Position numbers and translations under genes: made by a program
IMG/VR virus record: IMGVR_UViG_3300028048_000110
Span: 1 to 64,000 of that record
Direction: 5' to 3' (one strand)
Length of the DNA: 64,000 nt
Source of the DNA: a virus
Lineage: Duplodnaviria; Caudoviricetes
The notes under the pieces: model-generated
Databases searched by the model: none
Told to the model about the DNA's origin: nothing
Seen by the model: the letters and a program-made list of their open reading frames with translations, nothing else
Shown here: one piece after another, positions 9,378-55,946 of the stretch
Layout of the letters: each line of letters begins with the position of its first letter
Numbering within the stretch: the first letter of the stretch is position 1

Positions 9378-9782
9378 ATGGATGAGAAGATGAAAGACAA
9401 GATCATGGCTTGGCTTTTAGAGAGAAGTCATCTAGAGCCAAAGCTTTGGCTAAAGCCTAACTCTATGGACAGTCATTACTATGGGTTGACAACCGAATGG
9501 AAAGATGGCGGCAGATGGAAGACTGTTGAGGTCCAATTTTGGTCTACTGAGCCAAGAGGACACAACATATCTGTATTTGTCTTAGATGCTGATGGTGAGC
9601 AGGCGCTTAGCATATCTCTGCATGAAGGCTTAGATCTATTGATGACATCTGTGCAAAAGTCAAAAAGTCCAATATACTTAGCATATTTGGATGGCTCTGA
9701 AGTGAGCACAGTGTTCATTGACAACAAAGACAGCTATGAGAAGTTGGCAATTGAGTGTGATCTTCAAAGAGGAGAGAAGTAA
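9378..9782 (+). CDS. Array protein (DSYEKLAIECDL)
   Basis: 134 aa. Confidence 0.85.
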   Translation: MDEKMKDKIMAWLLERSHLEPKLWLKPNSMDSHYYGLTTEWKDGGRWKTVEVQFWSTEPRGHNISVFVLDADGEQALSISLHEGLDLLMTSVQKSKSPIYLAYLDGSEVSTVFIDNKDSYEKLAIECDLQRGEK

Positions 9783-9785
9783 TCT

Positions 9786-10145
9786 ATGGACAAAGCATGG
9801 CAGTTGTGCGTAGTTGATAGAGATGCTGTCGACTTAAGTAAAGCTCCAGAATTTGAGAAGATGCTTATGTCTGTGCAAGCGAAGTCACCATTTCCAAATG
9901 GCACGCCGGTGTTTGTTGTCACTTCAGAGCTTAAGTCATTCAAAAACTTAGCACAAGTGTATCAGACATTGACGTCTATTAGAAGATATGCTGTTATGAA
10001 TGGAATCTTGTTTTCATATGTGTGGATGCCAAAAGAGATGCACTATGGATGGATCATGCATGATCTATTAAGGCCAATTCTCACAGAAAGAGATGCGGTT
10101 GAGATGGAAGCAAAGTTTGGACTCAACTTAGAGGAGTTTGCATGA
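9786..10145 (+). CDS. Hypothetical protein with weak motif (DAVEMEAKFGL)
   Basis: 119 aa, in operon. Confidence 0.75.
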   Translation: MDKAWQLCVVDRDAVDLSKAPEFEKMLMSVQAKSPFPNGTPVFVVTSELKSFKNLAQVYQTLTSIRRYAVMNGILFSYVWMPKEMHYGWIMHDLLRPILTERDAVEMEAKFGLNLEEFA

Positions 10146-15588: not shown

Positions 15589-16629
15589 ATGAAGTATGTA
15601 CAACCTAAGAGCTATGACTCTATAGATGCTTACAGCAGTGCAGACTATGTAGCTAAGCATGGATTCTTAGGGTGTGGATTTGATGGTGGCTATAGTGTTG
15701 CAGAAGCATTTATGGCAAAAGCGGCTGCATACAGCTGTCCACAGCTTGAGATTGATCTTGCTGTCAAAGGGATTGACATAGACAACATTTCAATTGAGAC
15801 ACTCTATGCTACACGCAGCTTAGACCATTGGTCTGTCAATGACATGTTTGAGAGAATCTTTGCGAAGTGTGTCTTCATGGGTTGGTTCTTCAATGGCTTC
15901 TTGAATGCATGTGCTGAGACAAAGTTCTTAGACAACTGGCTGTTGTCAGAGATTTTCATGTCAAATGTGCATGCCGGCAGCATTAGAGGGATGTGGGGCA
16001 TCATCTGCCACCATGAAAATGGGACAAAAGAGCCATATAGAAGTAGATTTAGAGCATTCATCAAGTCTTTAGACGACAGAGGGCTAGACTGGACAAAGAA
16101 GTATCTTGATCCTGACAATTTCTTTGGAAAAAAGAGAGGTGTATTGGCTATGAGCAGGCTTGAAGAAAAACAGATGCTTGATGCTGCTCTACAGAAATGC
16201 TGGAAGCTTGCAGCAAAGAAGATTCTTGATAAGGTCTGTGGACGTAAAATTGAGTCTATGTGTGTTGGATATGGATTAGATGTTGGATATGGACTAGGTT
16301 TTTACAATTCCGCAGTCATTGGAGATGCTGAGAACATATTCATATGCAATGTTGCATTCAGTTTTGGAGAAGCAAGGCGCATTATGATAGAGCCATCTAG
16401 ACACAATATGTCTAAACTGCACGCAATGGTTGATGTTGATGAGCTTGATGAGAATGAGTCAAAGTCAGTCATGCGAGCACTGTTCTATTCTAGCCGTCCA
16501 ATTGAACTCGTGAAGAACAGGTATGGAGCAACTGGAAAGTCAATTGCACCAAGCTCAATTCTAGATGCACTAGAGACAGTTGGCTTGTGTGCAGAAGAGC
16601 TGCTAGTGCAAAGTGACTTAAATAGATAG
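15589..16629 (+). CDS. Large array protein with C-terminal LCAEELLVQSDL and an internal motif-like YSCPQLEIDL
   Basis: 346 aa; ends in TAG, next TGA at 16675-16677. Confidence 0.85.
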   Translation: MKYVQPKSYDSIDAYSSADYVAKHGFLGCGFDGGYSVAEAFMAKAAAYSCPQLEIDLAVKGIDIDNISIETLYATRSLDHWSVNDMFERIFAKCVFMGWFFNGFLNACAETKFLDNWLLSEIFMSNVHAGSIRGMWGIICHHENGTKEPYRSRFRAFIKSLDDRGLDWTKKYLDPDNFFGKKRGVLAMSRLEEKQMLDAALQKCWKLAAKKILDKVCGRKIESMCVGYGLDVGYGLGFYNSAVIGDAENIFICNVAFSFGEARRIMIEPSRHNMSKLHAMVDVDELDENESKSVMRALFYSSRPIELVKNRYGATGKSIAPSSILDALETVGLCAEELLVQSDLNR

Positions 16630-16640
16630 AAGGAACAGCC

Positions 16641-17090
16641 ATGGTATACAAGTCAGAACTACTAGAGAACAACATGAAGAAAGACTTCAATGCTCGTATG
16701 GAGTTGTATCTCAACAGCAAGTCTATCCATGAGTATCTCGTTGAAAGAGACTTGAAAGGGCTCAACAAGTACAACTTCAAGCTATCTGATGAGTTTTTGT
16801 GGTGGTACATCTTGAAAGAAGAGTTTGGGATGTTTGTGCTAGGTGCATCACTAGCAGTAGTCTTAGGCATAGCTATTCCAGTGCTTCTCTACATCTGTGG
16901 ACTGTGGTGGGTATGGTCAATTGCTGTCGCTATAGTACTAGAGGCAATCGTGTCACTTTTCATTGTAGTTACGCTGAAGACAGTCAGCTGTCTCAGTGAA
17001 AAGCGTGTAGACTCACCAATAGACGGCAGCAGAGACTACTTTGCGCGTGTTGATGCCCAAATGTCATCAAAGCAGATGCCAAATGAGTAG
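16641..17090 (+). CDS. Membrane protein with N-terminal copy of the motif (KSIHEYLVERDL) and 2 TM helices
   Basis: 149 aa; two hydrophobic stretches. Confidence 0.8.
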   Translation: MVYKSELLENNMKKDFNARMELYLNSKSIHEYLVERDLKGLNKYNFKLSDEFLWWYILKEEFGMFVLGASLAVVLGIAIPVLLYICGLWWVWSIAVAIVLEAIVSLFIVVTLKTVSCLSEKRVDSPIDGSRDYFARVDAQMSSKQMPNE

Positions 17091-17592
17091 ACTAGTTGAA
17101 AGGCTTTTGAAGAAGCATGGTCTAGATGGAATCAGAATAGTCTTTTTTCTTGATCCATTCTCTAGCAGTAAGATAAAGTTGATGGCTGTGAAAGACAAAG
17201 ACAAAGCTACTATGTGGCAGACGAGATTTGACATACGGTGTGGAGCTGAGACAGATGAGATGCTGTGCAGCATATGGGAAGACTTAGTTGGCTCATGCTT
17301 AGACAGAATGGCTGTTTACCGCATAATTGACTTCACTCAAAAGATGTGGAAAGATCCACATTTTGCCAATGCAAGAGATGCCATTCTTGACATTGTAGAG
17401 AACAGGCTTCTAGAAGAATCTGCTGCTGGAAGAGCTATCAGTCTAGTTGATCAATTTGGAGACAATGTGCTGTTTGACCGTGCTGTATATGAGTTCATTG
17501 CTCCATTCAGCACAAGAGAGAGCTTGTCAATAGGCTTAGACTTAGAGGAGAGAGCAGATGTGGCCATTCAAGAGAGACAATGCCATAGTTGA
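17083..17592 (+). CDS. Array protein (STRESLSIGLDL)
   Basis: ATG at 17083 within track ORF 17041-17592. Confidence 0.8.
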   Translation: MSRLVERLLKKHGLDGIRIVFFLDPFSSSKIKLMAVKDKDKATMWQTRFDIRCGAETDEMLCSIWEDLVGSCLDRMAVYRIIDFTQKMWKDPHFANARDAILDIVENRLLEESAAGRAISLVDQFGDNVLFDRAVYEFIAPFSTRESLSIGLDLEERADVAIQERQCHS

Positions 17593-17966: not shown

Positions 17967-19283
17967 TCACACCTTAAAAGGTGTGATCTTCGTGGATCTA
18001 TGTCTCTCATAGCTCTTTGAGAATTTCTTCTCATAAGCTTCCAGAAACTCCTCACGCTTAAATTCCCTGCGTCCCACAGGTACTGAGAGTCTTTTTTCAA
18101 GAATCATCTCAACTAGCTAGACCATGTTCTTTGCAGCATGGATGTCTCTGTCTTCTTTGACTCCACATGTGCATTTGAATGTCCTTTGGGATGTCTTCAT
18201 ACTATGCGTCTTTCCACATTCCATACATATCTTTGTTGTAGGGATCATTTTGTCAAGGATAATGACATTGTCAAATGCAGTCATTAGCTTTGACTTGACT
18301 CTACCTAGTATAGAATGCTAGACTTTCTTTCCATGCCTAGTCTTGTGCCATCTAGCTAGTTGCTCATCTTGAATGATGACATTGTCATAAGGCTTGAGCT
18401 AAGCAAGGATTTTGTTGGCCAAGTCATTCTTTATGTTTGTCATCTTCTAGTACTATTGCCGTAGTAGTCTCTTTGTTCTTTCTCGATTGCTAGAGCCTTT
18501 CTTCTAGCGCTGCAGTTTCTACTGCAGTCTCTTCATATGCTCAGTTTCTCCAATCAAGACAGTCTGCTTTTCTCCATTGCTGTAAGTCAATGTTGTCTAG
18601 CAGCCAAAGTCTATGGCAATGTTCTTTCCATTGAAAGGTATCTTTGGAAGGTCTTCTTTGAAAGTGAATGTTGATATTGCAATGTAGTACCCTCTAGGAG
18701 TGTTCAGCAACTTAGCAGATGCAAGCTCAATTCTATTGTCATCTATGAACTGCTTTGCTCCAGAGACCATAACAGTTCCTGAGACTCCTTGGATCTTCAT
18801 CTTCTTCTTTGTGATGAACTTGTATGTGTTTCCATACTAACACAAGTTCAATGACTTGAGCTCATCAACAAACTTCAGCTCTCCATACTTCTGCTTCTTG
18901 CCTTTAACCAATGATATGATTGTCTTGAGGTTTGACTTCATCTCATCAACAACACCTTGCGCCATTTGTGATCCAATATATTGAAGCTGTCTTTGCTCAA
19001 TTGCTCCATTCTTTGTCTTCACATTCACTATGTCATGCTTGTGTGGACGAGTGCATTCAAATATGCTTTTGTTGTTATCTCTTGCCCATGCAATCCTGTC
19101 ATTCTTCAACCACTTTCCCTCAACAAACATCATCTTGAGCTATTCTTTTTGTCTTGTTGAGAGCTTTGACTAGTCAATCTTCACTTTGAAGACACGACAA
19201 ACTTGCTTAGAGCGTTTTGCTCTAGTCTTCTGCATTGACTCTTTTATCTTGAGCCGTTTCTCATCTGTGCATGCTTGTCTCAT
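17967..19283 (-). CDS. tnpB: TnpB RNA-guided nuclease, 438 aa with 11 in-frame TAG=Gln
   Basis: Hand translation: RuvC IAIDFG, IIQDE, Zn finger CMECG/CTCG, DRDIHAAKN; ends KITPFKV-TGA. Confidence 0.9.
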
Positions 19284-19374: not shown

Positions 19375-19785
19375 ATGCATAAGTATGACTCATACAATCA
19401 TGTAAAGTTCTCTATAAAATACCACATCATATTGTCAGTGAAGTACCATAGAAGAATCTTGAATCCAATCATAGATGACTTGAAGAAGTCATTTGATAGA
19501 GCAGCAATTGACTAGCCATGGAAGATTGCCATAGTAGAGACTGATGCTTAGAAAGACCATCATGTCCATCTACTAGTCAAAGCACGTCCATCAATTGCCC
19601 CAAACTAGATTGTAGCTAGACTTAAGCAGTTCTCTACTTATGACTAGTGGAATAAAAACCGTAGCTATATGATAAAATATTTTTGGAATGGCGAGCACCA
19701 TTTGTGGACAAGAGGGTATTTTTGTTCTACTATAGGTGAAGTGAGTGAATAGAAGATACGACAATACATTGAAAGACAAGGATGA
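19375..19785 (+). CDS. tnpA: IS200-family Y1 transposase, 136 aa with 5 in-frame TAG=Gln
   Basis: KYHII..KY, HUH motif DHHVHLL, LWTRGYFCSTIG, catalytic YIERQG-TGA. Confidence 0.92.
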
Positions 19786-19862
19786 CTTCTGCAATTCATA
19801 TTACACCCTAAAGGATGTGATGTTTCTTGTAGAAGAAAATCTAAAGCTATAGAATTGAGTAT

Positions 19863-21317
19863 ATGGAGACGCAGCAGATGAAGTTGAGCTATGAGCAAGA
19901 AGGGTTCTTAGAGCTTGCTGAGAAAGGCAAGAACATCTTCTTGTCAGGCAATGCTGGAACTGGCAAGAGCACAGTCATCAAAGAGTTCATCAAGAAGACT
20001 GACAAGAATGTTGTTGTTGTTGCTCCAACTGGTGTTGCTGCTGTGAACATTGGTGGCCAGACAATCCACTCTTTCTTCTTGCTTCCACCAAGCTTGATGA
20101 CTCCTGACACAGTCAAAGACATACCATGGCGGAGAGTCAGAGACAAGATATCAAGAGTAGATGTCATTGTCATTGATGAGATATCAATGGTACGGAGTGA
20201 CATGCTTTGGGCAATTGACAGACGATGCAAAGAGTGCGCAAGAGGAGTCAACAAGAGCATCCCTTTTGGTGGCAAGCAAGTAGTTGCTTGTGGAGACTTC
20301 TTCCAGCTCCCTCCAGTTGTTGTAGACAAAGTAGAAGAAGACTGGCTTGAAGACAACTTTGGTGGAGAGTATGCATTTGAGACACAGATCTGGAAAGATG
20401 CCAACTTTGAGACCATTGTCTTGCGAGAGCCATTTAGGCAGAAAGGTGACAAGAAGTTCTTGGCACTCTTAGACAAAGTCAGAGCTGGAGACTTGGCTGC
20501 TGTTGTTGATGGTGCAACTAGAGATGTGCTTGGGACAATCAATGCTGAGTGTCCACAAGACAAAGTGATGGAGAAGTTCCCAATAAGGCTGTGCACAACA
20601 AACAAAGAAGCACAGATGGTGAACAATGAAGCAAGAGCAAAGATTGCTGCTCCACCAATCTACTTCAAAGCTGTTGTCAAAGGCAAGTTCAATGCGCCTG
20701 ACTACCCTACTGAAGCTGAGCTTGTGCTGAAAGCTGGATGCCGTGTGATGGTCCTCTGCAACAAGCATGACCCTAGCGGAGGGTTCTTCTATGTGAATGG
20801 CGACTGTGGAGAAGTCATAGACATAGTAGAGAACTATGACTTGTCAAAAGTCAAAGTCAAGTTTGACAACGGAAACACTTGTTGGGTAGGGTGCAAAGAG
20901 TGGAAGAACATGAAGTATGTCCTTGAGACTGACCATCTCAGTGGACGGAAGATAGTGAGGCAAGAAGAGATTGGCTCATTTGTCCAAATGCCACTTAGGC
21001 TAGCCTACGCAACCACAATACACAAGTCTCAAGGGATGACACTTGAGTCAGTTGACCTACGTCTTGGCAATGGATGCTTTGCCCATGGCCAGCTCTACAC
21101 AGCATTGTCTCGAGCAAGAAGCCTGTCTGGCCTACGTCTTGAACGGCCAATTGACCCTGAAGACTTGATACTTGATGACAGAGTTGTTGCATTCTACAAG
21201 AGCCTAGAGAAGAAGCCACTTGACTTCTTAGATAGTCAATGTGAAAGTGTAGAAGTGCCTCTAGAGCACCTCGAGAAAGTGAAAGAGTACATAGCTCAGT
21301 TGTCTGGGCAGACTTAA
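19863..21317 (+). CDS. PIF1/Dda-like SF1B DNA helicase
   Basis: GNAGTGKS, DEISM, GDFFQLPPV, AYATTIHKSQGMTL, GQLYTALSRAR; no internal TAG. Confidence 0.92.
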   Translation: METQQMKLSYEQEGFLELAEKGKNIFLSGNAGTGKSTVIKEFIKKTDKNVVVVAPTGVAAVNIGGQTIHSFFLLPPSLMTPDTVKDIPWRRVRDKISRVDVIVIDEISMVRSDMLWAIDRRCKECARGVNKSIPFGGKQVVACGDFFQLPPVVVDKVEEDWLEDNFGGEYAFETQIWKDANFETIVLREPFRQKGDKKFLALLDKVRAGDLAAVVDGATRDVLGTINAECPQDKVMEKFPIRLCTTNKEAQMVNNEARAKIAAPPIYFKAVVKGKFNAPDYPTEAELVLKAGCRVMVLCNKHDPSGGFFYVNGDCGEVIDIVENYDLSKVKVKFDNGNTCWVGCKEWKNMKYVLETDHLSGRKIVRQEEIGSFVQMPLRLAYATTIHKSQGMTLESVDLRLGNGCFAHGQLYTALSRARSLSGLRLERPIDPEDLILDDRVVAFYKSLEKKPLDFLDSQCESVEVPLEHLEKVKEYIAQLSGQT

Positions 21318-24897: not shown

Positions 24898-25821
24898 ATG
24901 ACATACATATTTGATGATGAAGCCTCACTTGGCCAAGCGGTAGACAGCGTAAAGCCATTCTGCAAGTTGACTAAGTAGATGGACATCCCTACTGAGAAGT
25001 AGATTGTTGGTGACTATGCTGACTTCAGCAGATACCCTGGGCTTGCGGGAAAGAAGTGGAGCAGACTATGTGGATTCACGTTCAAGAGCAAAAATGGCCA
25101 ATACTTCTAGTTTGTGTTTGTGCCTAAGTTGAAGGGCACACTCTCTAGAAACTAGAAAGCTCTGTCTGGCTGGTACTGTTGGACATTGATGCCACAAAAA
25201 GAAGACAGCAAGAAGGTCACTTCTATTGCTGAGATGAAGTCAAGATTTGGCTTTGACATAAACAAGTTTGTCCACTCTGACTTGTTTGACAAGTACATCC
25301 CCATCTTCAAGGCAAATGTCAACTATGCATTGAACCACTAGGTGAAAGACTTGTTGATGAGTCCACCTGAGTCATTTGATGACTATGAAGAGCTAGTAAG
25401 GCACATCAACGCAGTAGCAGACTCTATCAAGAAGATTGATGATGTGAAGCAAGTTGTTGCACCTTCTAATGCGCAGCCTGATGATGCTCCTGACTATGCA
25501 AAAGGGTCAACTCCAAAGGTAGGCCATGCAAAGATTGCCTACAATGCTGACAAGACATATGACTTGCCAAACATGCCAAAAGCATCACGTGAAGAAGAGC
25601 AGCGTAGACAAGCCGTCTAGAAGATTGCACAGAAGATGAATGCTGCTAGCCAAAAAGCAGATACATCTACTAGTGAAGAGCCAACACCTAATGCCAGCAA
25701 AGATAACCACATAAAGTATGACCCTTCTCTTAAGCACAAGTTTGGTGGTGGAAGGACAAAGAAGTCAGACAGTGAGATATTTGACAAATATGATGACTAT
25801 GACAATGATGACTTTAGATGA
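24898..25821 (+). CDS. Hypothetical late protein, 307 aa (TAG=Gln)
   Basis: Continuous frame from ATG 24898 through track ORFs 25342 and 25636 with only TAG interruptions. Confidence 0.75.
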
Positions 25822-27626
25822 CAATGAAGAACTCTAAGACATATGAATCTATTCTTGATGAGCCTAAAGCAACTTTGGACCCTAGTGTATGGCAAGAGCC
25901 ATCAGGAAGCGGCAAGCCAATTTTGACAGATGAAGCTGCATCAAAACTGCACAAAGCCATAGAGTGGGCTTAGGAGCAGTACCACTTCAACAACCTCAGT
26001 GTCTTCTTGCTAGGGTCTATCTGCTCAAACTCTTACTCAGAAGACTCAGACATAGACATTGACTTCTGTGCTCCTGGAGTAACAACTGATGACAATGATG
26101 AAGATGTTGTGAAGGAGTTTGGCTGGGCATTCAAGAAGAACTTCATAGAGAACTACATGGAGAAGAATCCAGAAGATGCTAAGATTGGAACCCACCCACT
26201 CGAAGTGTACTTCAGCCCTAATCCATTCTAGTGCTTTATGAGTGTAGGATGCTACAATGTCTTAGAAGAGAAGTGGGAAGTTGGGCCTGAACTCAAGAAA
26301 GAAGGGTTTGACCCAGTGTCTGAATACTATGGTGATGCAATGAAGCAAGTAGACAAGATACTGAAAGACATAAGGTCAAAGATATTTGAAGTCTATGAAC
26401 TTGCATTTGTCATAAAGAAGTCATCAGACTAGCCATTTAGAGACAAGACATTTGAGACACTGTCTAGCAAGCTTGAAGACATCTCTAAGTTGTACACGAC
26501 AATGAAGAGAGTCCGTTCAAACTTCTAGAAGCCATGCAAGAGCAAAGAAGAAGCGCTGAAGCGCCGCCAAGACAAGAAGCAACACGTTGTTGATGCAGCA
26601 TTCAAGTTCTTGGACAAATTTGGCTATGTGTCAATAATGAAAGACATGATCTAGCTGCATGATGACAAAAAGGCTGGTGCAAAACTGTCAATCAACTACA
26701 TAGTTAGCAGCATCTTAGCATCTGTGAAAGAGAACATGTCACTCAAGCACCTTCAAGACTCCGAAGACCAAGAGTTCATCAAGAAGCTAGAAGAAGCTGA
26801 CTAGCTGCTCAATGAGAGCATTGGCAAGTCAGTTTCACTTGCTGCAGTCATATCATTGCTAGCTGTTCCTAGCATATTGCCAAGAGATGCTTTAGCCGCT
26901 GACTTAGAAAGCATTCCAAAGACTGAGATGCACGTGAATTCGGATGCTGTCAAGAAGATCATCAAAAAGAACACTGTAGCTCAGTCATACAATGGCTTGA
27001 ATGCAACAAACATCATCAATGTTGTTGCTCGCACTATATATGCTGAAGCGAGAAGTGAAGGGACTGAAGGTCTTGATGCAGTCGCTAGTGTGATCTGGAA
27101 CAGAGCCGGTGGAAAGCCTGAGAACTTTGTGCCGGTGATCTCAAAGAAGAGCTAGTTCTCTTCTTGGAGATCATATAGAGGTGGATGGACAGACAAAGAC
27201 TTCATATACAAGATACCTAGCTTCTAGATATTTAGGAAAGATAGCTAGAGAAAGATCTGGGACTATTGTGTCCATCTTGCAACATTGATGTACAATGGCA
27301 ACTTCAAGTCAACAATTGGCAATCGCAACATGATTGGCAACAAGAAGCTAGACAACAAAGATGCATGGGACTCTTGGGGAAAAGACTGTGATCTCAAGAT
27401 TGGAAACCATGTGTTTGGGTATGAAGCCTGCCACGATGGATTTGCAAAGAAAGGCAAAGCTAAGCAGACATCTTCTAAGCCAGTTGTTGTAGTTGTCCAA
27501 GGTGGAGACACTCTCTAGAAGATTGCCAAAGCCAACAAGACAACTATAGACAAGATTCTCAAGCTAAACAAAAGCATAAAAGACCCAAACAAGATAAAGA
27601 TTGGGCAGAAGATACAGATAGCATGA
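25818..27626 (+). CDS. Fusion: pol-beta-like nucleotidyltransferase + SleB/Hydrolase_2 cell-wall hydrolase + LysM, 602 aa, 10 TAG=Gln
   Basis: LLGSICSNSYSEDSDIDID (GS..DxD); ARTIYAEARSEG..AVASVIWNR and KKS-TAG(Q)-FSSW; C-terminal VQGGDTLQKIAK..IDKILKLN..IKDPNKIKIGQKI. Confidence 0.85.
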
Positions 27627-32622: not shown

Positions 32623-33399
32623 TCAAAGCAAGATCTCACCTCTGAACTCTTCATTCAGCTTCTTCAGTGGTCCAATGAGTACCCCGAGTGGTGTATATCT
32701 GAACATCTTCTCGAGAGCATCTACATCCTTTGGAAAGCACTTTCCGCCATATCCAAGCTTGCCATCTGGTCCAGGCACTTGAGTGTGGACATCATTTATG
32801 TAGGTTGAGCCAAGCACTCCTTCACGCACTTTGCTGTAGTCAAGTCCTCTCTTCTGGCAGAGGTCATAGATGCAGTTGAAGTAAGTCACCTTCAAAGCAC
32901 CAAACACGTTGTGTGCATACTTCACCATCTCAGCTTCTTCAGAGCTCATGATGATGTGCTTCTTTCCAGGGAAGATCTTCTTGAGAAGCTCAACATGCTC
33001 AGGTGCTCCAGTGAACACCATTGGCTGCCACTTGAAGTCTTCAAGGTAAGTGCGCTCAGTCAAGAACTCTGGCATGTGGTAGACAACTTTGCCGGTCTTC
33101 TTTGACAGCATTGCTGATGTCCCAGGAAGTATTGTTGTGCGAATCCAGATTGGTACATTGTCTGGGCATTTTGCGACTAAGCTCTCAAGAAGCTGAGTGT
33201 TCTGTGTTCCATCTGCTTCTGTTGGCAGGTGGATCTAGATGAAGTAAGCATCACAGTTGCTTATGCCATCATTTATCCCTTTTGGCGGGTCACTAACTCG
33301 TGTCTCCACATCTAGGTTGCTCTGCTTGAGCCACTCATTCAAAGCTGTGCCAATGAAGCCACAGCCAATGATTCCGACTTTGATTTTGTTGACTGTCAT
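32623..33399 (-). CDS. UDP-glucose/GDP-mannose dehydrogenase family protein, 258 aa, 1 TAG=Gln
   Basis: GIIGCGFIG Rossmann motif, IRTTILPG, KYAHN, GYGGKCFPKD. Confidence 0.9.
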
Positions 33400-34151
33400 A
33401 AAATCTACTTGATGTGTTTTTGATTGAATAGAAAATTCTCTTCTGTAAACAATGAAATGTAGTGCTATGGCTTGAAGTCAATGATTGCCTTCATGTAGTT
33501 TTTGCTTTTTCCTGTCCTATTGTCAACAACTAGAAGATGTTTGCAGAAGCACGCTAGTATTGGAAGCACTGGTATTGCCATAGAGTCACAGTTGACAGCA
33601 ATTCTCTATATAGGAGCAATTCCAAGATTTTCAATGAAACCTGACTAATGGCTTAGTTTGAACAGTGAGTGGTAGCAAGAGATTGACATGTATGGGCAGT
33701 TGTTTACGCTACGGAGAACTTCATGGTCTCCAACTTCTTCTTTGCTGCTATCAAACATCTTTATCTTGAACTTTGCATTTGGCAGATTGTGGTAAGAGAA
33801 GTCACAAGTGTTCCAGACATATGGGATCTTGACAAATTGATTTTTATTGAAGTTGATGTGCAATGCATTCATCAATATTGGAATGAATTTCTCCCACACG
33901 CATCTTGTAGTCCAGTGGTGGACATTGTTCTTGTAGGCAATGTATTTGTCACTGTCATTCTCAATGATGACTTTCTAAAAGTGCAGTGCGTGTGGAAGAT
34001 ATGCTGGCTGCTAGAGAACTCTCTCAAATGGCATTCCAGCAATCTTGTTCTTTCTATACGTGGCAAAGTGCCACATCTAGCATTTGTCAGCATGCAGACT
34101 GCCAAGAAACTAGCTGTATCTATTGACTAGGTTGCTTAGAGAATCACTCAT
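33396..34151 (-). CDS. Hypothetical protein in glycan cluster, 251 aa (TAG=Gln)
   Basis: Continuous frame with only TAG interruptions; ATGA overlaps on both sides. Confidence 0.65.
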
Positions 34152-36598
34152 ATGTTGTCAAAACCTAACTTCTAAATGACGACATCATTTGTGTAGAAGT
34201 TCTAGCCATTCTTTGACAGTGCGTTTTTGTCACTTGACTCTGCATATGGGCATAGCTTAGACTTGTGTGGAACAGAAACAACGTCTATGCCAAGCATCAG
34301 CTCTTTCTTCTTTAAGAACACATCATCTGCCAAAATAGAGTCATTTATCATTGCTATGTCATCATTAGTTATGTTGAGTATGTTTGGAGGGTAAAGCACT
34401 CCTCCTACTCCAGTTGCAAACAAGTACTTTGATGGATTTTTCTCATTTGTATAGTCAAACTTCCAATATTTGTATTGGCATATTTTATTGCCACTATAAA
34501 CCATCAAGTGCGTTCTAAGCGCTGACACACAGTTTGGAAACTTTAGATAGCTTACATACAAAGACTAAATGGCATTGTCACTGTATTTGACATCATCATC
34601 TATTGTTATTATTGGTAGATCTCTATATTTCTACATGACAAAGAAGTACTTGTTGTGCGGCCTAAGCTTATTGTCTCCTTGTATTATTTCAACATCATAC
34701 TTTGACATAGTGCTCTTTTGAGATTGGCTTAGTCTTTTGATGTCACTTTTGTCTAGTGTTATGCATATCTTGAAGTCAATGCTTGTCTTTTGGTCAACAA
34801 GCTGCTTGCATGTGCGTTCTATAGTTGACAGCCTTGAGCCAAATGTTGTGAATGCTACTATGCACTAGTATGACTTGTTTTTTGCCCAACTTCCAGCATT
34901 CAGATGGTCAACATATGCTTTGAAGTCTATCTTCTTGTACTTGGCTCTCTTTGACATGATGTCATCATAGAATGATGACCCTGTGTCATAGATTCTGTTG
35001 CCATAATGGTTTTCTCCAATGCGCCGTGAGTCAAAGTACTTTATGCCTAGCTTGTTTATCAAGCTGACATTGAAGAACTGTATAAATGGGACAAATCTTG
35101 GGACGTACGGCATCTTCCTAAAGTCAATTGGCCTAGTCTAGATGTCTGCTGCTGTCACTGTATTGTCATCAATGAAGTCAATGTCTTTGTGCAGCACCGT
35201 GTCTGAGTCAAACAATACCATGTACTTTGTCTTGCAGATGTTCAGCAGATATTGGATTGAGTAGCAGTGCTTGGCAGATGCATGGTTGTTGTGAGACCTC
35301 GTGTTGAAGAAAGACACAATCATCTTGTTGAAGTCAATGAATCTACCATGGGTGTTGTCTATAACCTCAATTCTTGACTTGTCAATGCTAGAGTCTAGCT
35401 AGAATGGAATCTTGTCACTGTTGTCAAACACTGTTATCTTGTACTCAAATGCCTTTATGTTCTTCACTATGCTCTTTATGCAGTTGTTGGTGAGGTCATT
35501 TGTGTTGAAGTTGCAGATTGCAATTGTCACATATGATGAGTCTAGATATTTTTTCTATGCGTGGTCTGACAGCCATGAGAAGAATTGGTCATTGTCATCT
35601 AGAATGTTGGGGTTCTTGTCTAGAACGCCATATTGAAAGTTGTTTTTCCAACAAGCATAGTTGAAGCTCAATTGGTCTCTATGGCTTCCATTGACAACAC
35701 ATGACAGCCAGTCTTCACACACTTTTCTGCACGCTTCATCATTATGGCGCCTCAGTAAGATATTTGTCTCAGCTAGCCCATTCTTTTTTGGGTACTTGTT
35801 TGCCAACAGCATCTTGACGTGCTTGTCTACAATACTCTTGCTGTCTTTGTGTATGTCAAGCACTTTGATGGCTTCATCATATATGCAGCATCTGTTTGGG
35901 TGCTTTCTAACATACAGTGGTGTCTTATCTAAGTCATACTTCTATATGAAGAGATTCAAATCACTCTTTATCTAGATATTGCCATCAACCCAGATTGAGA
36001 TGTCATACTCTTTCAAGTATCTATGAGGGCAGATCTTTATGCATCTTTGTTTTTTAACATTTGATAGATGGTCTAGTTCTTGTGGAAGCTTTATTATTTT
36101 CCAAATGCAGGACTCTTTATATAAGTCTGGCTTGTCTGTAAAGCAGACATAGTCAATGCCGTCACTTTTGACTAATGGCTGCTTTAGTGAGTCATATCTA
36201 CCTGTTATGCATGTATAGCAGACAATCTTCTACTTATATGACTGCACAGTGTCTTGCTCTTCTTTTCTAGTGTAGTCTCCACAGTGCACTTTAGCATCAT
36301 TAAGACTGTTTTTTAGCACCACTTTGTTGCCTTCTCTAATACTAGCCACATCTTTGACATCTATTGCCTTTTCAACTTTTGGAGCATCCTTCTCATCTTT
36401 TACTACATATATCTAGTCTTTATGGCCAAGTGCTGATGCAAACCCTCTTACATAGTCTATTAGCACTTTCTATTTCTCATCTAAGTTTTTGTCAATGATC
36501 ACTATATTGACATCTTTATTGTCTTGCTTAAACTAAGACAGCATAAGATCTTTTATACTGTCATCAATTTTCTATACTATTATATTCATTGTTGCCAT
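34148..36598 (-). CDS. Multidomain glycosyltransferase, 816 aa: DUF616-like + GT-A (VLFDSD) + GT-A (ITIDDD), many TAG=Gln
   Basis: Track ORFs 35555, 35138, 34865 and 34202 share one frame; CYTCITG.YD.LKQP, SIWVDGN, RDQLSFNYA, LRPHNKY. Confidence 0.82.
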
Positions 36599-36601
36599 AG
36601 G

Positions 36602-37279
36602 TCATCTGCTGTGCTGATGTATCTTAAATGTAGAATTACTATTTATCTTGAAGTCTTTGTTCAAGCATCCTGGCAAGAAATGCATCTTCCAACATGCATA
36701 GTTGAATGAAAGCTAGTCACGGTGAGAGTACTTCAGCAGCTCACTTGCCCAAAGGTTGTCAAGCAGTTGGCACTTCACATCGTTGTGCTTACGTAGCAAG
36801 ACACAGCTCTCAACCATCCCAATGTTCTTTGGATAGCCTTCTCTTCTATATGCATCAATCTGCCTATTGATGCACTACTTTGTGTCTTTATGCAAGCGAA
36901 TGCATGCTTTTGCCTCTTCATATATGCACTTTCGGCACGGATGCGCTCTTACATACAATGGGCACTTGTCTAAGTCGTACTGATTGACAAAATCTATCAA
37001 GTCTCTCTATATTTCAAGATTTCCATCTACCCAAATTGAGATGTCATACTCTTTCAAGTACCTATGTGGGCATATCTTTATGACACGCTGCTTTTTCACA
37101 TTGCTGAGATGTTTGAGCTCTTCAGGAATTGGCCTAAGCTTCCATGCTCCACCTTTCAACTTCATGTTGTCCGTGAAGCAGATGTAGTCAATGCCTTTAC
37201 TGACAACTTTTGGCTACTTCAAAGAGTCATAGCCTCCTGTCACACATGTATAGCAAACTATAGACTTACTATTCTACAT
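36602..37279 (-). CDS. DUF616-like glycosyltransferase, 225 aa; codon 2 is TAG
   Basis: CYTCVTGGYDSLK(Q)P, SIWVDGN, HRD(Q)LSFNYACWK; paralogue of the first domain of the adjacent gene. Confidence 0.85.
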
Positions 37280-37294
37280 GTGTATATTTTACAT

Positions 37295-37969
37295 ATGGAG
37301 AAGACATTTGACACCGCATTTGACACAGCAAGCTCAGGCTAGCCATACATGGTCTACCCAAAAGTGTTCTCAGACAACCGTGGGTCATTTTCAGAAGTGC
37401 TTGTGGAAGAAGACATAGACAATATAAGGCAGATAAACAGAAGTGAGTCGTGCCAATGGACAATACGAGGCTGCCATGCACAGCGAGCGCCTCACTGCTA
37501 GTCAAAGCTTGTTGAAGCTTTGACTATTCCAATATATGACATCATAACAGATGCACGTCCAGACTCAAAGACATTTGGCTTGACTGAAGCATACTATCTA
37601 GATCCAAGCAAGTAGAACAAGCTGTTTGTCCCACATGGGTTCTTGCATGCATTTGCTGTGCCAGAGTTCAAAGAAAGTGCTAGTCAACAAGCAATGTTCA
37701 TGTACTACTGCGATGACATCTACAGCAAAGCTGATGAAGTAGGAGTCAACCCTATGAGCATCTTTCCAAGACTTCTAGAGACATGGGAGAAGAATGTCAA
37801 TGAGAACAGCATTCTATGGGACTTAGTCTAGATGCTTAAGACTCCAGACAAGCTAGTGCTGTCTAAGAAAGACACTGAAGCACGAAGCTACTAGTCATTC
37901 ATGGAAGAAGTCTCAAAAGAGTACTAGAACAGCAAAAGCCTTTGGTACTGCAAAAGCATCAAGACCTAA
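37295..37969 (+). CDS. rmlC: dTDP-4-dehydrorhamnose 3,5-epimerase (RmlC-like), TAG=Gln
   Basis: PKVFSDNRGSFSE, QINRS, IRGCHAQ..PHC(Q)SKLV, DARPDSKTFG, LFVPHGFLHAF. Confidence 0.85.
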
Positions 37970-41695: not shown

Positions 41696-44392
41696 ATGAC
41701 AAACATGAGCAAAGACTATTCAAAATACACAGACTATCAGCTTAGTATTGGAGCATTAAATAGAAATAGCATGATTCTTTCTGCTGGCATAATAAGCAGT
41801 CTTGTCAATGACTGCTATGTCGTGTCTAGCTTTAATGAGCTTCCTGCACCTAGTGGATGTGTTCCAGGCGATGTCGCTATTGTCAGTAGTATTGTCGGTG
41901 GCAATGAGAACATTATAGAACGAAAAGTGTTCTATTGTGCAAATAGTGCTTGGCAGCCACTTAGTGGACACGCAAAGTCTGGCAACATCTACTTTGACAG
42001 CAACTTGAGCATTGCTGGAGATTGGCTAAGTGTTGATGGCATTCTAAGTAGCAATACTATCTAGTCTAAGGGAAAGTCATTAGACTGGCTGGTGTCAAGC
42101 TTGCCAACATTCATTGATAAGAACACTAGCAAAATCACAATCAGCTCTGACCCTACTGCGGTTGACTTGTCAATCCACAAGATGACATATGACTAGTTTG
42201 AAGACAGAGTGCTTGATGAGAATCACCCAATATCAAGCAATGAGCTGTTCATCATAGAAGATGACTGCATTGACTGCTATGGCCAAGAGATAAAGAATGT
42301 CCTTTCATCTACTGAGCCAATGAATGCTGCTACAGTTGGACAAGTTGGTGCTGCTAAAGTAGAGCTATGTGCTTATGCTGATGAGATCTCTGCTCAAGCA
42401 AGTGCAGCTATAGATGAGCTTCAGACAGACGTGTCTAACATTAGTAGTGCCGTGGATGAAAAGGCTGACGAGACGACTACAGTCAAGCTGTCGCTAGCGG
42501 AAGAATATTTCCCAATAAACTACATGGATGCAGGCACTCCAGTTTCAATTTCTGGACCAGATGACGTGCATGTTGTTGATCTTGGACCGAAATTATATGC
42601 GCTCTACACTGTCTCTGGAGACATCGAGATTGCAAAGTTCAACCGGTTAAGTCTGGCCTACAATTCATCGCTCCTGAGCAATAACAATCTCGTGTTCAAT
42701 TATGCCGCACCCATTGCTAGCAAACGCCCAGTGCTGTCATATGTTGGAGGCACGGTCGTCCGCTTTGGAGAGTTCGCTGCCACTATCTCTTCTCTCTCAT
42801 CCAACATCAATAGCAAGCTCGACAAGAGCAGCGAAGACTGGACTGTCAGCTACACAGAGAACGGACTACACATAGCCGACACCGCCGGGGTGTACTACAT
42901 AGATATAGCTCCAGGCATGGTAAAGACAAACTACCCGAATGTTCACAATGTTTACTGGCCGATAACAAGGGGAACCCTCGCGCGCCTTGAGGACATTGCG
43001 GGAAACTTTAGTTCGTCGACGGCCTATGCAAAAGACGCGCTCGTCGAACGTTTTGGCTTACTCTACCATTGTGTCAACCCGAATGGGCATACTGGCGCAT
43101 GGGTGGATGCAGACTTCGGCGCGGCGACCGTGGAGGACATTCTCGCGGCGCTCCGCGCGGGCAAGGCGGACAAGCCTGCGACCTTCACGGCAGGCAATCT
43201 CGCTACGCTGAATGCCAATGGCAACCCGACGGACAGTGGGCTGTCTAGGGATACTGTTGAGAGTCTTTTCTTCGCGCAGCACTACCCCGAGGGCAAAGTC
43301 AAGAGTGCAGCAGAGTTCACAGTGGGAATCAAGTATGACGCCCCTGATACGGTCAACCGCACGATTATGGTCAAGCCGTTCTGCGACATAGATGGTACGG
43401 CAGAGAACGACAACTCGTCTCTTGTCGGGCGTGTGGTGATTCCGCCGTTCGTGGATGCAGACGGCAACGGGTACATCTCCGACGACGGCACGAGGTTCAA
43501 AGTCGTGGGGGTGAGTGGTGGTTATGCAAACAGCGACAACTTTAATCTAACCGCCATCTTCGCGCCAAATACGGTGACAAACATCGGGAACAGTGCGTTC
43601 TTCGCCTGTGCCTCGCTGACCTCCGTCTCGCTCCCAGCCACCACGGGAATAGGGAATCAGGCGTTCAGATACTGCAGCTCGCTAACCTCTGTCTCTCTCC
43701 CCGCTGCCACGACCATCGGGAGCGACGCGTTCTTCGCCTGTGCCTCGCTGACCTCCGTCTCGCTCCCAGTCGTGACGACCATCGGGGCTTCCATGTTCAG
43801 CGACTGCTACGAACTGTCCTTAGTTGACTTCGGCAACACACCACGCTCATCTGTACCGTCACTCGACGCATTTACGTTCAACGCTGTCCCGACGACCTGC
43901 AAGATAATTGTGCCTGACGAGCAGTATGACACATGGATTGCCGCTGATGGATGGAGTGACCTCGTGATAGCTGGATACAAGTTCCTGAAGTATAGTGAGT
44001 GGGAATATGCTCATAGATATGAAGTTCCTAAGCTCTCAGTTGACAACACTCCAGCAAATGTCAACATAGTCCACATCTCACAAAAAGACTATGAGCAGCT
44101 AGTCTTCGATGGTGATGCTTTGAGCAACACCTTGTATGTTGTATCTGGTGACTATATCAATGCATATGGCCAATAGATAAAGAATATTGCTCCAGGCAAT
44201 GATCTGTCTGATGCAGTCAATGTAGAGTAGTTGAATGCAATTGGCAACAAAACTCAATGCTTGAATGCAATATCATCAAACAATGTATTGTCAAACTTCT
44301 ATAGCACTATTGCAGCATCAGGAGTAAATGCTGTAACTATAGAGACAATGTGCTCAGCATTGTTTGAACTAGTAAAGACGTTAGGATACTGA
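41696..44392 (+). CDS. Tail fibre/receptor-binding protein with BspA-type LRR_5 repeats, 898 aa (TAG=Gln in flanks)
   Basis: Track ORFs 41696 and 42209 share a frame; AFxxCxSLTSVSLP repeats; DAVNVE(Q)L YadA-stalk-like motif. Confidence 0.82.
43595..43830 (+). repeat. 66-nt coding repeat (22-aa LRR) x3.5
   Basis: Units at 43595, 43661, 43727 and 43793; units 1 and 3 share 42+ identical nt. Confidence 0.9.
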
Positions 44393-44406: not shown

Positions 44407-46317
44407 TTAAAGGTCTTGAAGCGAGCACTCAACTGTGTTCGCTTCAATGATCTTCATGAAGTCATCTTCAGAGATGATCTTAATGCCAAGCTCTTTTGCT
44501 TTGCGGTTCTTAGATGAGTTGCTGCTTATGTCATTGTTGACTAAGTAAGTCAATCCTTTAGACACACCTACCTTTGACTCATATCCATGCTCTAGTGCAT
44601 ATTCTAAGAACTTGCTTCTTGAGCCAAACTTCAGGCCACCTGTCACACATATTGACCCTTTTATGCTGTTCTTAGCCTTGGCTATGCTAGATGAGCTAGG
44701 GCTCCAATGCCAACGAGTGTCACTTACTACCATATTGACGTGTCTAAGTGCTTCAGGAAGATCCTCGATGAACTTGTCAAGCGTTATAGCTCCAATCCCA
44801 CTAGGCAGAGACTTGTATGCTTCATCTTTGAAAGATGTAGACTCAACAAGACTGTATCCATAGTGGTCAACAATCTTTCCAACAGATGTCTCAGACAAGC
44901 CTACAAAATTCATTGCCCCTAGGAGCTTCTCTTTGCTCTGTGAAAACACCTTTGCATACAGCTCATCATACAGCTTGACTTGAGACTTGTAGTCTTTGTT
45001 TGGCATGAACTCTAGCAACTTTTCAAATGAGGTGATGCCAAAGTTCTTGAGAGTTGCATTAGATGCTGACTTCACGCCAAGCTTCTTGATGAAGTTGACT
45101 AGACGATGGACAACCTGGTCAGGGCAGTTCTTGTTCTTGCACCGCATGTTGATGCCATCTCTCACAAGTGGGGCACCACAGCAAGAGCACTCAGTTGGAG
45201 GGTCAATCTTCTTGCAGTTTGGACCATTCTCAATGACATGCTCAATGTGTGGTATCACGTCTCCTGAGCGCTTAAGCACTATCTTGCTTCCATACATCAA
45301 TCCAAGCTGCTCAATTATGTCAAGATTGTGCAGAGACACACGGCTGATTGTAGCACCACCAAGCTCAACTGGGTCAACAATCCCTACACCAACAAAGTTG
45401 CCATCCTTTGAAGGGCCTTCCCACACGACATCAACAAGCTTTGTCTCAGCAACCTGTTGGTTTATCTTGAAGGCTTTGCATGCATCTGGACGGTACTTGT
45501 CTTCATTTCTGTATTCAGGAGAGCAGATGACAAGTCCATCAGTCTCATAGTCAAACTCTTGTGATGCCCAATCAAACAGCAGTTTTGGAATGTCTTTAAC
45601 TGAGACAAGGTCAACTTCTAGATGCCAAGCTGGAGACATTCCTTTTATGCAGTCAAGTATTTGAAACTGCTGGTTCTTTGTGTACTCCTGTCCAAGAATA
45701 GTGTAAGGGACAAAAGAGACAAACTTGACTTCATCTTCTGTCCAGTCTTTACGGTTCATTATTCCAGCGCATGCATTGCGAGCATTTGCAAACTTGCCAT
45801 CTTCAATCTCATTGAGCTTCTCAAAGTCTGCCTTCAATATGACAAGCTCACCACGTATCTCCATGCTCTCATCAATAAGAGCATTTGTCTGCTCATCATG
45901 AAGCTCATGTGGCAAGCCATTCACAAACATCGCTTTGTCAGTGATGTTCTCTCCAAATGACCCATCTCCACGTGTAGTTGCTGCAACTAGCTTTCCATTC
46001 TTGTAAGAAGCACGGCAAGAGATGCCATCAACTTTAGCACTTGCATTCAATGACTTGCCAAGAGACTTGACAAACTTGATGACTTCTTCAGGCTCTTCTC
46101 GCTTGAGCTTGTCAAGCGAGCCCATGATGTATGGATGCTTGACTTTGCCTTTGCCTTCATGCAGAGAGTCTCTAAATGAAGCATACTCTTCTTTTGAGAC
46201 ATTCTTTTCAAGCTCCTCACATAAGTCATCAAATGCTTGGTCACTCATAGTTGGGTGGCCATCACGATATGCTTTGTTTGCGTCTAGAATCTGCTTCTTC
46301 AATTTGTCTATTTCCAT
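44407..46317 (-). CDS. ligA: NAD-dependent DNA ligase
   Basis: KVDG motif I, RGDG, EIRGE, NARNACAG, DGLV, Zn finger, C-terminal BRCT; no internal TAG; extended -10 at 46324-46332. Confidence 0.95.
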   Translation of the reverse strand: MEIDKLKKQILDANKAYRDGHPTMSDQAFDDLCEELEKNVSKEEYASFRDSLHEGKGKVKHPYIMGSLDKLKREEPEEVIKFVKSLGKSLNASAKVDGISCRASYKNGKLVAATTRGDGSFGENITDKAMFVNGLPHELHDEQTNALIDESMEIRGELVILKADFEKLNEIEDGKFANARNACAGIMNRKDWTEDEVKFVSFVPYTILGQEYTKNQQFQILDCIKGMSPAWHLEVDLVSVKDIPKLLFDWASQEFDYETDGLVICSPEYRNEDKYRPDACKAFKINQQVAETKLVDVVWEGPSKDGNFVGVGIVDPVELGGATISRVSLHNLDIIEQLGLMYGSKIVLKRSGDVIPHIEHVIENGPNCKKIDPPTECSCCGAPLVRDGINMRCKNKNCPDQVVHRLVNFIKKLGVKSASNATLKNFGITSFEKLLEFMPNKDYKSQVKLYDELYAKVFSQSKEKLLGAMNFVGLSETSVGKIVDHYGYSLVESTSFKDEAYKSLPSGIGAITLDKFIEDLPEALRHVNMVVSDTRWHWSPSSSSIAKAKNSIKGSICVTGGLKFGSRSKFLEYALEHGYESKVGVSKGLTYLVNNDISSNSSKNRKAKELGIKIISEDDFMKIIEANTVECSLQDL

Positions 46318-53149: not shown

Positions 53150-53872
53150 TCATATGCTCTTAGACTATTTTCGAAGACGCCAAATCAACTTGTCAGTGAA
53201 GTCAATAGGGTTTATGTATGTGTTCTTCTCTTGAAGAAATGCCTTGTTCACTTCTGAGTGGTATATGTCAAAGTGCTCATCTAGAAGACTTAGCTCTTGT
53301 CTAGAGAAGTAGTCAAGCCTAGAGACAATCTTCTTGAAGTTTGGTATTGCTGCAAAGAAGTACATTGATATCTCACCTGTCACAATGCTTTTTCCAATCT
53401 GCTTCTTCTCAATGAGCATCCGTAGAAAGTCTTTAGTTGTGAAATACCCTTCATCAATGCATCTATGCGCAATGTTCTTTGCCGACTTGATGAACCACTT
53501 GTATATGCTCTTGCGCAAGTTGAACTTCTTTAGATGCACTATGTACTTGTCAAGCATCTTAGTTGATGCCAAGCATGTGTCTAGCGTTGACTCAGTCATT
53601 CCACACCGCACACAGTACTTTATGTACGGCTCATAGTTGAAGTTGTTAGACTTTGCAGCATTGGCAAATGCGTCAAACAGATCTTTGTGCTTAGAATACA
53701 GAGCTTTTCCAGAGACAAGCTTCAATGGAAATGTCTTGCTCTTGTATGGATTTTGGAGACTTCTATAGTACTTGAAGACTTTTGCAACATACTCACCATC
53801 AAAATATAGAGCATCGTTTTGTTGACTGCTTTCTTCTTTTAGTGTATGACCCGAATCTAATTGACTGTGCAT
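53150..53872 (-). CDS. Hypothetical protein, possible gp59-like helicase loader
   Basis: Lies between gp41 and gp32; YFDGEYVAKVF loosely resembles gp59 YIDGKSVYKL; TAG at 53165 then TGA at 53150. Confidence 0.4.
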
Positions 53873-54506: not shown

Positions 54507-55946
54507 TCAAAGTGAACTAATGTTGCTTTGTATCTGCTGCAAGTCTTCTTGCATTCCACTTATGCTGTTGAATGCGTCTCGCATGTTGTCATCTGCAACG
54601 TCTTCTTGCTCTATGTCTGGATTGTTTGTTATGTCCTCTAGAACTAAGTTGTGCGTGTTGACTGTGAACTGCAAGACTTTGCCAACTTGACCACCAAGAC
54701 GGTTCTTCAATATCCTTGACCTGATGATTCCATTCTCTCTGTCTTCTTGCATCTGGAACAATGCCATCAAGAAGTCTGCTGTGAAGGCAATTCCACGAGA
54801 CTGTGATATGTTCTCCATTCCAACATTCTCATTGTTCATGCCTTCAGTGTTTGTCTGTATAGCACTTATCACTGGAGCCTTGAACTCATAGCTTATTGCA
54901 CGCAGCTTCTCTGACACATCAAGACCATCTAAGAACATGTTGTCATTCTGCTTGCTTGATGACTTGACTAGATTGAGGTAGTCAACAATGATAGCATCAA
55001 ACTTGTGCCCATTTGACTTCAAGCTCTCAAGATATGCACGGATGTCATTGCATGTGACAGACTTTGGAGGGTACTCTTTGATGTACAAGTTTGCTGTGGG
55101 GTGCTCTTTATAGAACTTCTTGATGTTCTCAACTGCACGGTCTTCACAGTCATTCAGATGGTTGATGTCTTCTTTTGATATGTGAGCGTCAAACCGCTGT
55201 GCATAGACATCTTCAGACATCTCAAGAGATATGACAACAACACTTAGGCCCTGCTTCAAGAAGTTCACTGCAAGATTTGACAAGAACAATGACTTTCCAA
55301 GACCAGCCTGTGCCATGACTAAGTACAGCGAACGGCCATCTTTCAAGAATCCACCGTGTGTGTATGTGTCAAGGCTTGGCCACAATGTGCTCAATTTGGC
55401 ATCAGGGTTCTTTATGTACTCCCAGTGCAGCTTCATTGCATCTTCATTGAAGTAGTTGAGTCCTAAGTCAGTGTCATTGAACGTTATCTTCTGCACTCTG
55501 TCAAAGTTCTCAAGGCACTTTGCAACAACTTTCTCATAGCCATCTTCACTACTGTTCAAGAGTCCAGCATTGTCATACAATGCATTGTAGAAGGCGTTTC
55601 TACGTATGAACTCTTTCAAGTTGCTGCTGATGACTTCTTCAGGCAAGTTCAAGTCAAATGCATTTATCTCTCCAAGCAGTTCATTGACACTTGACATCTC
55701 TATGCTCTCTTGGGGGTACTTCAATGCATAAGACTTTGCCATTGCAGCTAAAGTCTTTGTGCTAGGCGCTTGTCCATACTTCTCATAGAACCTCACTTGC
55801 AAGTCAGCAAGCACTGCCAAGTTAGGTGTCTTGAAGAACCTCTTGTCAAATGTCCCAACTAAGATGTTCATCCACTTCTTGTCAAGAGAAGCTTTCTTGA
55901 ACAACATCTTCTCTATGTCATCTCTACTGAAATCTAGTTCCATCAC
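54507..55946 (-). CDS. DnaB-like replicative helicase (T4 gp41-like)
   Basis: AQAGLGKS, SLEMSE, IVDYLNL, SAIQTN, ILKNRLG. Confidence 0.93.
   Translation of the reverse strand: MMELDFSRDDIEKMLFKKASLDKKWMNILVGTFDKRFFKTPNLAVLADLQVRFYEKYGQAPSTKTLAAMAKSYALKYPQESIEMSSVNELLGEINAFDLNLPEEVISSNLKEFIRRNAFYNALYDNAGLLNSSEDGYEKVVAKCLENFDRVQKITFNDTDLGLNYFNEDAMKLHWEYIKNPDAKLSTLWPSLDTYTHGGFLKDGRSLYLVMAQAGLGKSLFLSNLAVNFLKQGLSVVVISLEMSEDVYAQRFDAHISKEDINHLNDCEDRAVENIKKFYKEHPTANLYIKEYPPKSVTCNDIRAYLESLKSNGHKFDAIIVDYLNLVKSSSKQNDNMFLDGLDVSEKLRAISYEFKAPVISAIQTNTEGMNNENVGMENISQSRGIAFTADFLMALFQMQEDRENGIIRSRILKNRLGGQVGKVLQFTVNTHNLVLEDITNNPDIEQEDVADDNMRDAFNSISGMQEDLQQIQSNISSL

Follow-up and report, generated by a model that had tools for sequence, protein, structure and literature searches.

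Phages that read the stop codon TAG as glutamine (genetic code 15) have been found repeatedly in gut and rumen samples. A survey of 473 recoded phage genomes encountered only two reassignments, one of TAG (to Gln) and one of TGA (to Trp), and reported a suppressor tRNA with the anticodon CUA (tRNA-CUA) in ∼40% of the TAG-recoded genomes (bioRxiv 10.1101/2021.08.26.457843); for code-15 genomes the share is roughly 40–60%. Metaproteomics has confirmed the TAG-to-Gln change in crAss-like phages (PMC9523058), and TAG recoding has been described in rumen and gut jumbo phages carrying T4-like hallmark genes (PMC13037316). An earlier note on the DNA studied here had named Lak, some crAss-like, and other gut and rumen phages as users of code 15. 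Here we describe the use of TAG in IMGVR_UViG_3300028048_000110, a linear IMG/VR phage record of 90,991 bp that is ∼50% complete by CheckV, that is, about half a genome. Bases 1–64,000 of this record are the stretch of DNA that was analyzed and are referred to as the window. Judging from the sequence comparisons below, it is very probable that the record derives from a T4-like phage using genetic code 15, with TAG read as Gln in a large share of its genes.

We measured coding density as the fraction covered by non-overlapping open reading frames (ORFs) of at least 100 amino acids, which is an ORF-based measure and not a Prodigal prediction. The earlier note had made its reading depend on a rise in coding density, and over the window the density did rise, from 0.666 under the standard bacterial code (code 11) to 0.873 with TAG as a sense codon. 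The controls, in which TGA or TAA was treated as sense, reached 0.696 and 0.674, respectively. Between 22.6 and 64 kb the density was 0.563 under code 11 and 0.899 with TAG as sense; the first 22.6 kb already had a density of 0.854 under code 11. The share covered by ORFs of at least 300 amino acids went up from 19% with code 11 to 52% when TAG was sense, compared to 23% for either control. TAG trinucleotides are rarer than TGA, yet the gain in long ORFs is specific to TAG. Genes supported by protein families are interrupted by TAG alone and finish in TAA or TGA. The joining of fragments into long genes ending in TAA or TGA, which the earlier note had pointed out, is therefore real and specific to TAG, as the density and long-ORF controls indicate. 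In addition, filtered alignments to related IMG/VR phages contain 41 in-frame positions at which TAG is common to both sequences. Conservation of this kind rules out sequencing error and gene decay. The results show that UAG is a sense codon in the tail sheath, gp15-like, SleB/LysM lysin, fibre-like, sugar-modification (the DUF616 pair included) and TnpB genes. Every gene call made with code 11 is wrong, both between 22.6 and 64 kb and over the remaining record, and any other finding on the record needs to be read with code 15.

The earlier note had derived the identity of the residue from two adjacent genes on the minus strand, which it regarded as internal proof that TAG means Gln. With TAG read as Gln, the first gene (34148–36598, 15 TAG, ending in TGA) encodes a multi-domain glycosyltransferase of 816 amino acids that matches PF04765 (8e-13) and PF00535 (4e-5) in Pfam. 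The second (36602–37279, 5 TAG, ending in TGA) encodes a 225-amino-acid paralogue matching PF04765 (4e-25), the family TOD1_MUCI70 that was formerly called DUF616. Under code 11 the stretch 34148–37279 contains only ORFs of ∼40–120 amino acids. The two proteins are 57% identical over 205 aligned residues (E 4e-80). All four codons on which the proof was built are present on the minus strand of these two PF04765 genes: the TAG at 36713–36715 (residue 189 of the 225-amino-acid protein, in the motif HRD_LSFNYACWK) is aligned with CAA at 35672–35674, and the TAG at 37214–37216 (residue 22, in LK_P) with CAG at 36179–36181. The codon differences are real, but to call them a proof was an overstatement. 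The paralogue alignment holds six pairs of TAG and a sense codon, of which two are with Gln and the rest with K, S, E, and N; with a Gln background of 3%, two out of six has a chance probability of ∼0.012. Taken on its own, the paralogue comparison is suggestive evidence for TAG = Gln, not proof, and it is homologues from outside the window that decide.

Within the 816-amino-acid protein the DUF616 domain spans residues ∼100–330, and GT2-like regions are found at ∼357–472 and ∼588–686. The gene lies in a sugar island together with a UDP-glucose dehydrogenase-like gene (32623–33399) and an RmlC-like gene (37295–37969). On the related contig L013/L014/L015 (G004, IMGVR_UViG_3300033463_009319) two DUF616 domains lie within one stop-free open frame of 868 amino acids. 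This contig has CAA or CAG at the Gln of HRDQLSFNY and gains nothing when TAG is treated as sense, and the 868-amino-acid frame appears to be the standard-code counterpart of the paralogue pair.

To avoid bias, homologue searches were run with TAG translated as X. The DUF616 search gave 334 homologues at E ≤ 1e-5, and the columns were read from the best 120 of these 334. Among the best 120, the column opposite the TAG at 36713–36715 holds Q in all 117 aligned homologues, NCBI and JGI proteins included, and in the column opposite 37214–37216 Q is the most frequent residue (46 of 113). The earlier note had further placed TAG at conserved Gln positions of three other proteins, which agrees with the homologue columns in each case. 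In the RmlC-like dTDP-4-dehydrorhamnose 3,5-epimerase (37295–37969, plus strand; PF00908, 8e-29; 6 TAG) the TAG at 37499–37501 takes the place of the conserved Q of Q.KLV, and all five PDB RmlC alignments have Q there. For the SleB-type cell-wall hydrolase and LysM protein of 602 amino acids (25818–27626, plus strand; identified by Pfam; 10 TAG), the TAG at 27153–27155 is at the “QFS” position, where homologues less than 60% identical have Q in 33 and A in 10 of 43 cases. A fibre-like protein of 898 amino acids with BspA-LRR and YadA-stalk similarity (41696–44392, plus strand; Pfam; 4 TAG) has a TAG at 44228–44230 in DAVNVE_L, and Q is found at this position in both of its weak PDB matches, 8x8m and 3d9x (E 0.018 and 0.16). 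The gp15-like tail sheath stabiliser (61285–62469, minus strand; PF16724, 2e-20; 14 TAG) adds a further conserved column: opposite the TAG at 62002–62004, the distant homologues have Q in 62 of 70 cases and the near ones in 45 of 50. All five strongly conserved columns opposite TAG (DUF616, RmlC, gp15-like, SleB, and the YadA motif) are thus Gln; with a Gln background of 4% the probability of this by chance is ∼1e-7. A PDB search with the gp15-like protein gave no match, and in PDB alignments of the UvsW and LysM proteins the TAGs are at variable columns that carry no information on the residue.

The Q seen in near homologues from the large public protein collection can be circular, as some of these sequences were already translated with TAG = Q. 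An example is the gp15 gene of the close relative L076 (ENA ERZ28653728 scaffold_4432), which is translated “with_TAG=Q” in the collection. We therefore relied on NCBI, JGI, PDB, and table-11-verified sequences. Q is found at the conserved columns in NCBI, JGI, and table-11-verified homologues, and the gp15-like column at 62002–62004 has Q also in one homologue of each of these three kinds. L077 (ENA ERZ28574288 scaffold_264), a relative with 55% identity, reads under table 11.

Codon pairs between the window phage and related phages were counted in a gene set filtered for the correct strand. Q stands opposite TAG in 52 of 216 pairs, which is 24% relative to a background of 2.4%, or a 10-fold enrichment (BLOSUM62 log2-likelihood 143). 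E follows with 28 pairs (13% vs. 6.3%, 2.1-fold, log2-likelihood 118) and K with 25 (12% vs. 9.6%, 1.2-fold, 64), and W is found in a single pair (0.5% vs. 1.1%, 0.4-fold, −291). When only apparently standard-code relatives are considered Q is still at the top, with 9 of 45 pairs and a 7.7-fold enrichment. A greedily called gene set, in which Q and E were equal (20 each), was discarded, as its counts were contaminated by shadow ORFs, for which the subject sequence carried TAA or TGA.

The earlier note had reported that no suppressor tRNA was visible in the window and had proposed a search of the remaining genome for tRNA-CUA, glutaminyl-tRNA synthetase (GlnRS), and release factor 2 (RF2). There is indeed no tRNA gene within the 64-kb window, but the record does encode a tRNA-CUA outside it. 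This sole tRNA of the record is located on the plus strand at record positions 88,935–89,009, with a score of 31.8 bits for the Rfam tRNA model. The ARAGORN fold has a U1-A72 pair and G73; the CCA end is encoded, and the T loop, of 8 nt, is irregular. The identity set of bacterial tRNA-Gln consists of G73, U1-A72, G2-C71, G3-C70, G10, U35, A37, and U38 (PMC9976931), of which tRNA-CUA has G73, U1-A72, G2-C71, G10, U35, and A37. A BLAST search against GenBank phages gave 15 tRNA-Trp(CCA) genes as the only annotated matches (80% identity, E 6e-7). The D arm and the anticodon arm are near-identical to those of phage tRNA-Trp(CCA), with C35 to U as the only change in the anticodon, and among 318 tRNAs from IMG/VR loci the closest non-suppressor is again a phage tRNA-Trp. 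Bacterial tRNA-Trp has A1-U72. The anticodon arm recurs on 52 contigs in a pattern scan of IMG/VR, none of which is related to the window phage; their acceptor stems differ, and they carry no information on the identity of tRNA-CUA. A tRNA-Trp-like body is compatible with Gln insertion, since a tRNA-Trp amber suppressor is aminoacylated with glutamine (PMC9976931). C35 is a major determinant for tryptophanyl-tRNA synthetase (TrpRS) and U35 a determinant for GlnRS (PMC9976931). The tRNA-CUA of the record may have descended from a tRNA-Trp and be charged with Gln.

Taken together, coding density, conserved columns, codon pairs and tRNA-CUA indicate that Gln is the best supported meaning of TAG. 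Several observations weigh against it. Many TAGs lie at variable columns, the residues there being E, K, D, N, or S in homologues. Compared to standard-code homologues, TAG-rich genes are higher in Q+TAG and lower in E; in gp15, Q+TAG makes up 5.1% vs. 2.8–3.3% Q in the homologues, and E 4.3% vs. 7.5–8.2%. This composition fits TAG having arisen at tolerant sites, with GAG-to-TAG change as one of the routes. The depletion of CAA+CAG that is expected in TAG-rich genes was not seen, with a Spearman coefficient of 0.03, but the gene set held some shadow ORFs and this comparison is uninformative. The tRNA-CUA has C3-G70 instead of G3-C70 and A38 instead of U38, its T arm is irregular, and its body is nearest to phage tRNA-Trp and not to tRNA-Gln. 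Release factor (PF00472) and GlnRS (PF00749) domains gave no match in the 91 kb of the ∼50% complete record, a negative that is uninformative for half a genome; of the search proposed in the earlier note only the tRNA part was successful. Some of these observations would also be expected if TAG were sense but specified another residue, most plausibly Glu, with Lys, Trp, and pyrrolysine less likely. Glu is the second-best candidate and a weak rival: E is the second most enriched residue opposite TAG (2-fold), in several gp15 columns with TAG most homologues have E, and the E content of TAG-rich genes is below that of their homologues. The tRNA-Trp-like body could be taken to speak for Trp and the ARAGORN label “Pyl” for pyrrolysine, a label that is given to any CUA tRNA. 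However, the strongly conserved columns opposite TAG are all Gln, without a single Glu, Lys, or Trp column among them, and the BLOSUM likelihood places Q 25 bits ahead of E and W last. The TrpRS determinant C35 has been replaced by the GlnRS determinant U35 (PMC9976931), and in the surveyed phages Gln is the only residue given to TAG, the other reassignment being TGA to Trp (10.1101/2021.08.26.457843). We therefore regard a residue other than Gln as very unlikely.

The fragmentation of genes between 22.6 and 64 kb under code 11 could, in principle, also reflect damage to a standard-code genome, with the in-frame TAGs marking pseudogenes, a decaying prophage, or assembly and sequencing errors. 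The probability of this is close to nil: of the three stop codons TAG alone interrupts genes, the 41 conserved TAG positions are shared with phages from other samples, the protein sequence flanking each TAG stays in frame and conserved, and the record encodes a matching tRNA-CUA. A dual role of TAG deserves more weight, though we consider it rather unlikely. TAG would then be a stop early in infection and the true terminator of some early genes, and later Gln, giving short and read-through forms of some proteins; a TAA or TGA behind such a TAG may serve as a backup stop. In four otherwise TAG-free genes (15589–16677, 16641–17099, 19638–19898, and 53150–53872) TAG is found 2–10 codons ahead of the TAA or TGA end, 10 of 40 ORFs called with code 11 in 1–22.6 kb end in TAG, and this part is dense already under code 11, as noted above. 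On the other hand, the median distance from TAG to the next TAA or TGA is ∼8 codons compared to ∼17 in the control, a difference that is not significant; numbers are small and some of the ORFs are possibly spurious. A dual meaning would moreover extend the reading of TAG as Gln and is no true alternative to it. We can only tentatively suggest the combined scenario, in which host enzymes give Gln to a suppressor that arose from tRNA-Trp by a CCA to CUA change and the gain of U1-A72, much as with the classical E. coli tRNA-Trp amber suppressor, and TAG is kept as terminator of early genes. If this were true, the same codon would be stop early and Gln late, and both short and extended proteins would be made.

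TAG is unevenly distributed among the genes. The two sheath-like proteins have 19 and 7 TAGs, the UvsW-like helicase 9, and the TnpB gene (OrfB_IS605 / Cas12f-like TNB; 17967–19283, minus strand) 11 in frame. The NAD-dependent DNA ligase (44407–46317, minus strand), which is readable with the standard code, has none, and neither do the DnaB/gp41-like helicase (54507–55946, minus strand), the Dda-like helicase (19863–21317, plus strand), SbcC, and the chaperonin; UvsX has two and SbcD one. Expressed as a share of Gln codons, TAG accounts for 37–70% in the majority of the late, structural, and sugar genes that are rich in it, for 24–29% in three of them, and for 0% in ligase, DnaB, and Dda. Replication and recombination genes thus have no or almost no TAG, and structural, lysis, and sugar genes have many. 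With its 11 in-frame TAGs the TnpB gene, which belongs to a mobile element, appears to depend on the code of the phage.

This distribution appears to match the temporal model proposed for recoded phages, with standard-code early genes and suppressor-dependent late genes (10.1101/2021.08.26.457843). In the window phage, early genes would be translatable by an unmodified standard-code host, and the TAG-bearing genes would be made only after the suppressor tRNA has built up. We suggest that tRNA-CUA is charged with Gln by the host and then prevails over host RF1 in the competition for UAG. Charging could proceed through host GlnRS, via U35, U1-A72, G73, G2-C71, G10, and A37, or through a non-discriminating glutamyl-tRNA synthetase (GluRS) together with an amidotransferase that reads U1-A72.

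Family matches in the window include the gp15-like tail sheath stabiliser (PF16724), the two sheath-like proteins and the NAD ligase, and further UvsX, the DnaB/gp41-like and Dda-like helicases, SbcCD, and a Cpn60 chaperonin. The UvsW-like helicase has 2oca as its top PDB match. The gp15-like, UvsW, UvsX, and Dda genes point to a T4-like lineage. No nucleotide match to GenBank phages was found by megablast of 20 kb against 50,697 records, tblastn of gp15 against GenBank phages gave no match, and the top GenBank phage matches of DnaB/gp41 are Campylobacter T4-like phages with at most 29.6% identity. These results point to an uncultured, deeply divergent T4-like lineage and probably not to a Lak or crAss-like phage. 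A search with a single DUF616 protein did not find relatives. Related IMG/VR phages have DnaB proteins that are 56–85% identical, and gp15-like relatives occur on contigs of up to 322 kb. The clade mixes recoded members (L008, L011, L012, L020, and L076) with apparently standard-code members (L013 and L077). One related contig of 86.7 kb (L017; G001, IMGVR_UViG_3300031998_000045) has a tmRNA gene at 9551–9912 beside six tRNA genes, tRNA-CUA not being among them, and has at least two in-frame stop positions in common with the window phage, e.g., GDFFH*RNALT in SbcD.

The tRNA-CUA resembles the E. coli tRNA-Trp amber suppressor (PMC9976931) in its Trp-like body and the C35 to U change; the E. 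coli suppressor is charged with Gln, and the proteins of the window phage indicate Gln. Unlike the E. coli suppressor, the phage tRNA has U1-A72, a tRNA-Gln feature, and its Trp descent and Gln charging are both inferred. With the recoded jumbo phages (PMC13037316) the window phage shares T4-like hallmark genes that are split by TAG under code 11, the presence of tRNA-CUA, and a coding density gain that lies above the threshold of at least 10% used for them; being known from 91 kb, it is not classed as jumbo. The likeness to code-15 gut phages (10.1101/2021.08.26.457843; PMC9523058) extends to structural and lysis genes as the main carriers of TAG, a standard-code reading of early and replication genes, tRNA-CUA, a density gain specific to TAG, standard-code relatives within the clade, and no phage GlnRS as far as the 91 kb go. 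Accessory code-change genes (RF2 or an aminoacyl-tRNA synthetase), which are optional and occur in few clades, gave no match in the 91 kb (PF00472 and PF00749). The window phage differs from these gut phages in its T4-like modules (gp15-like, UvsW, UvsX, Dda, and the gp41-like helicase), in having no nucleotide match in GenBank and a top protein identity of 29.6%, and in lacking RF2 in the half genome. Our finding leaves the knowledge of the recoding mechanism unchanged, and a lineage with both recoded and standard-code relatives is a usable case for how recoding arises. TAG-to-Gln recoding has been documented at length for phages of the gut and rumen, and what is new here is its apparent presence in a divergent T4-like lineage.

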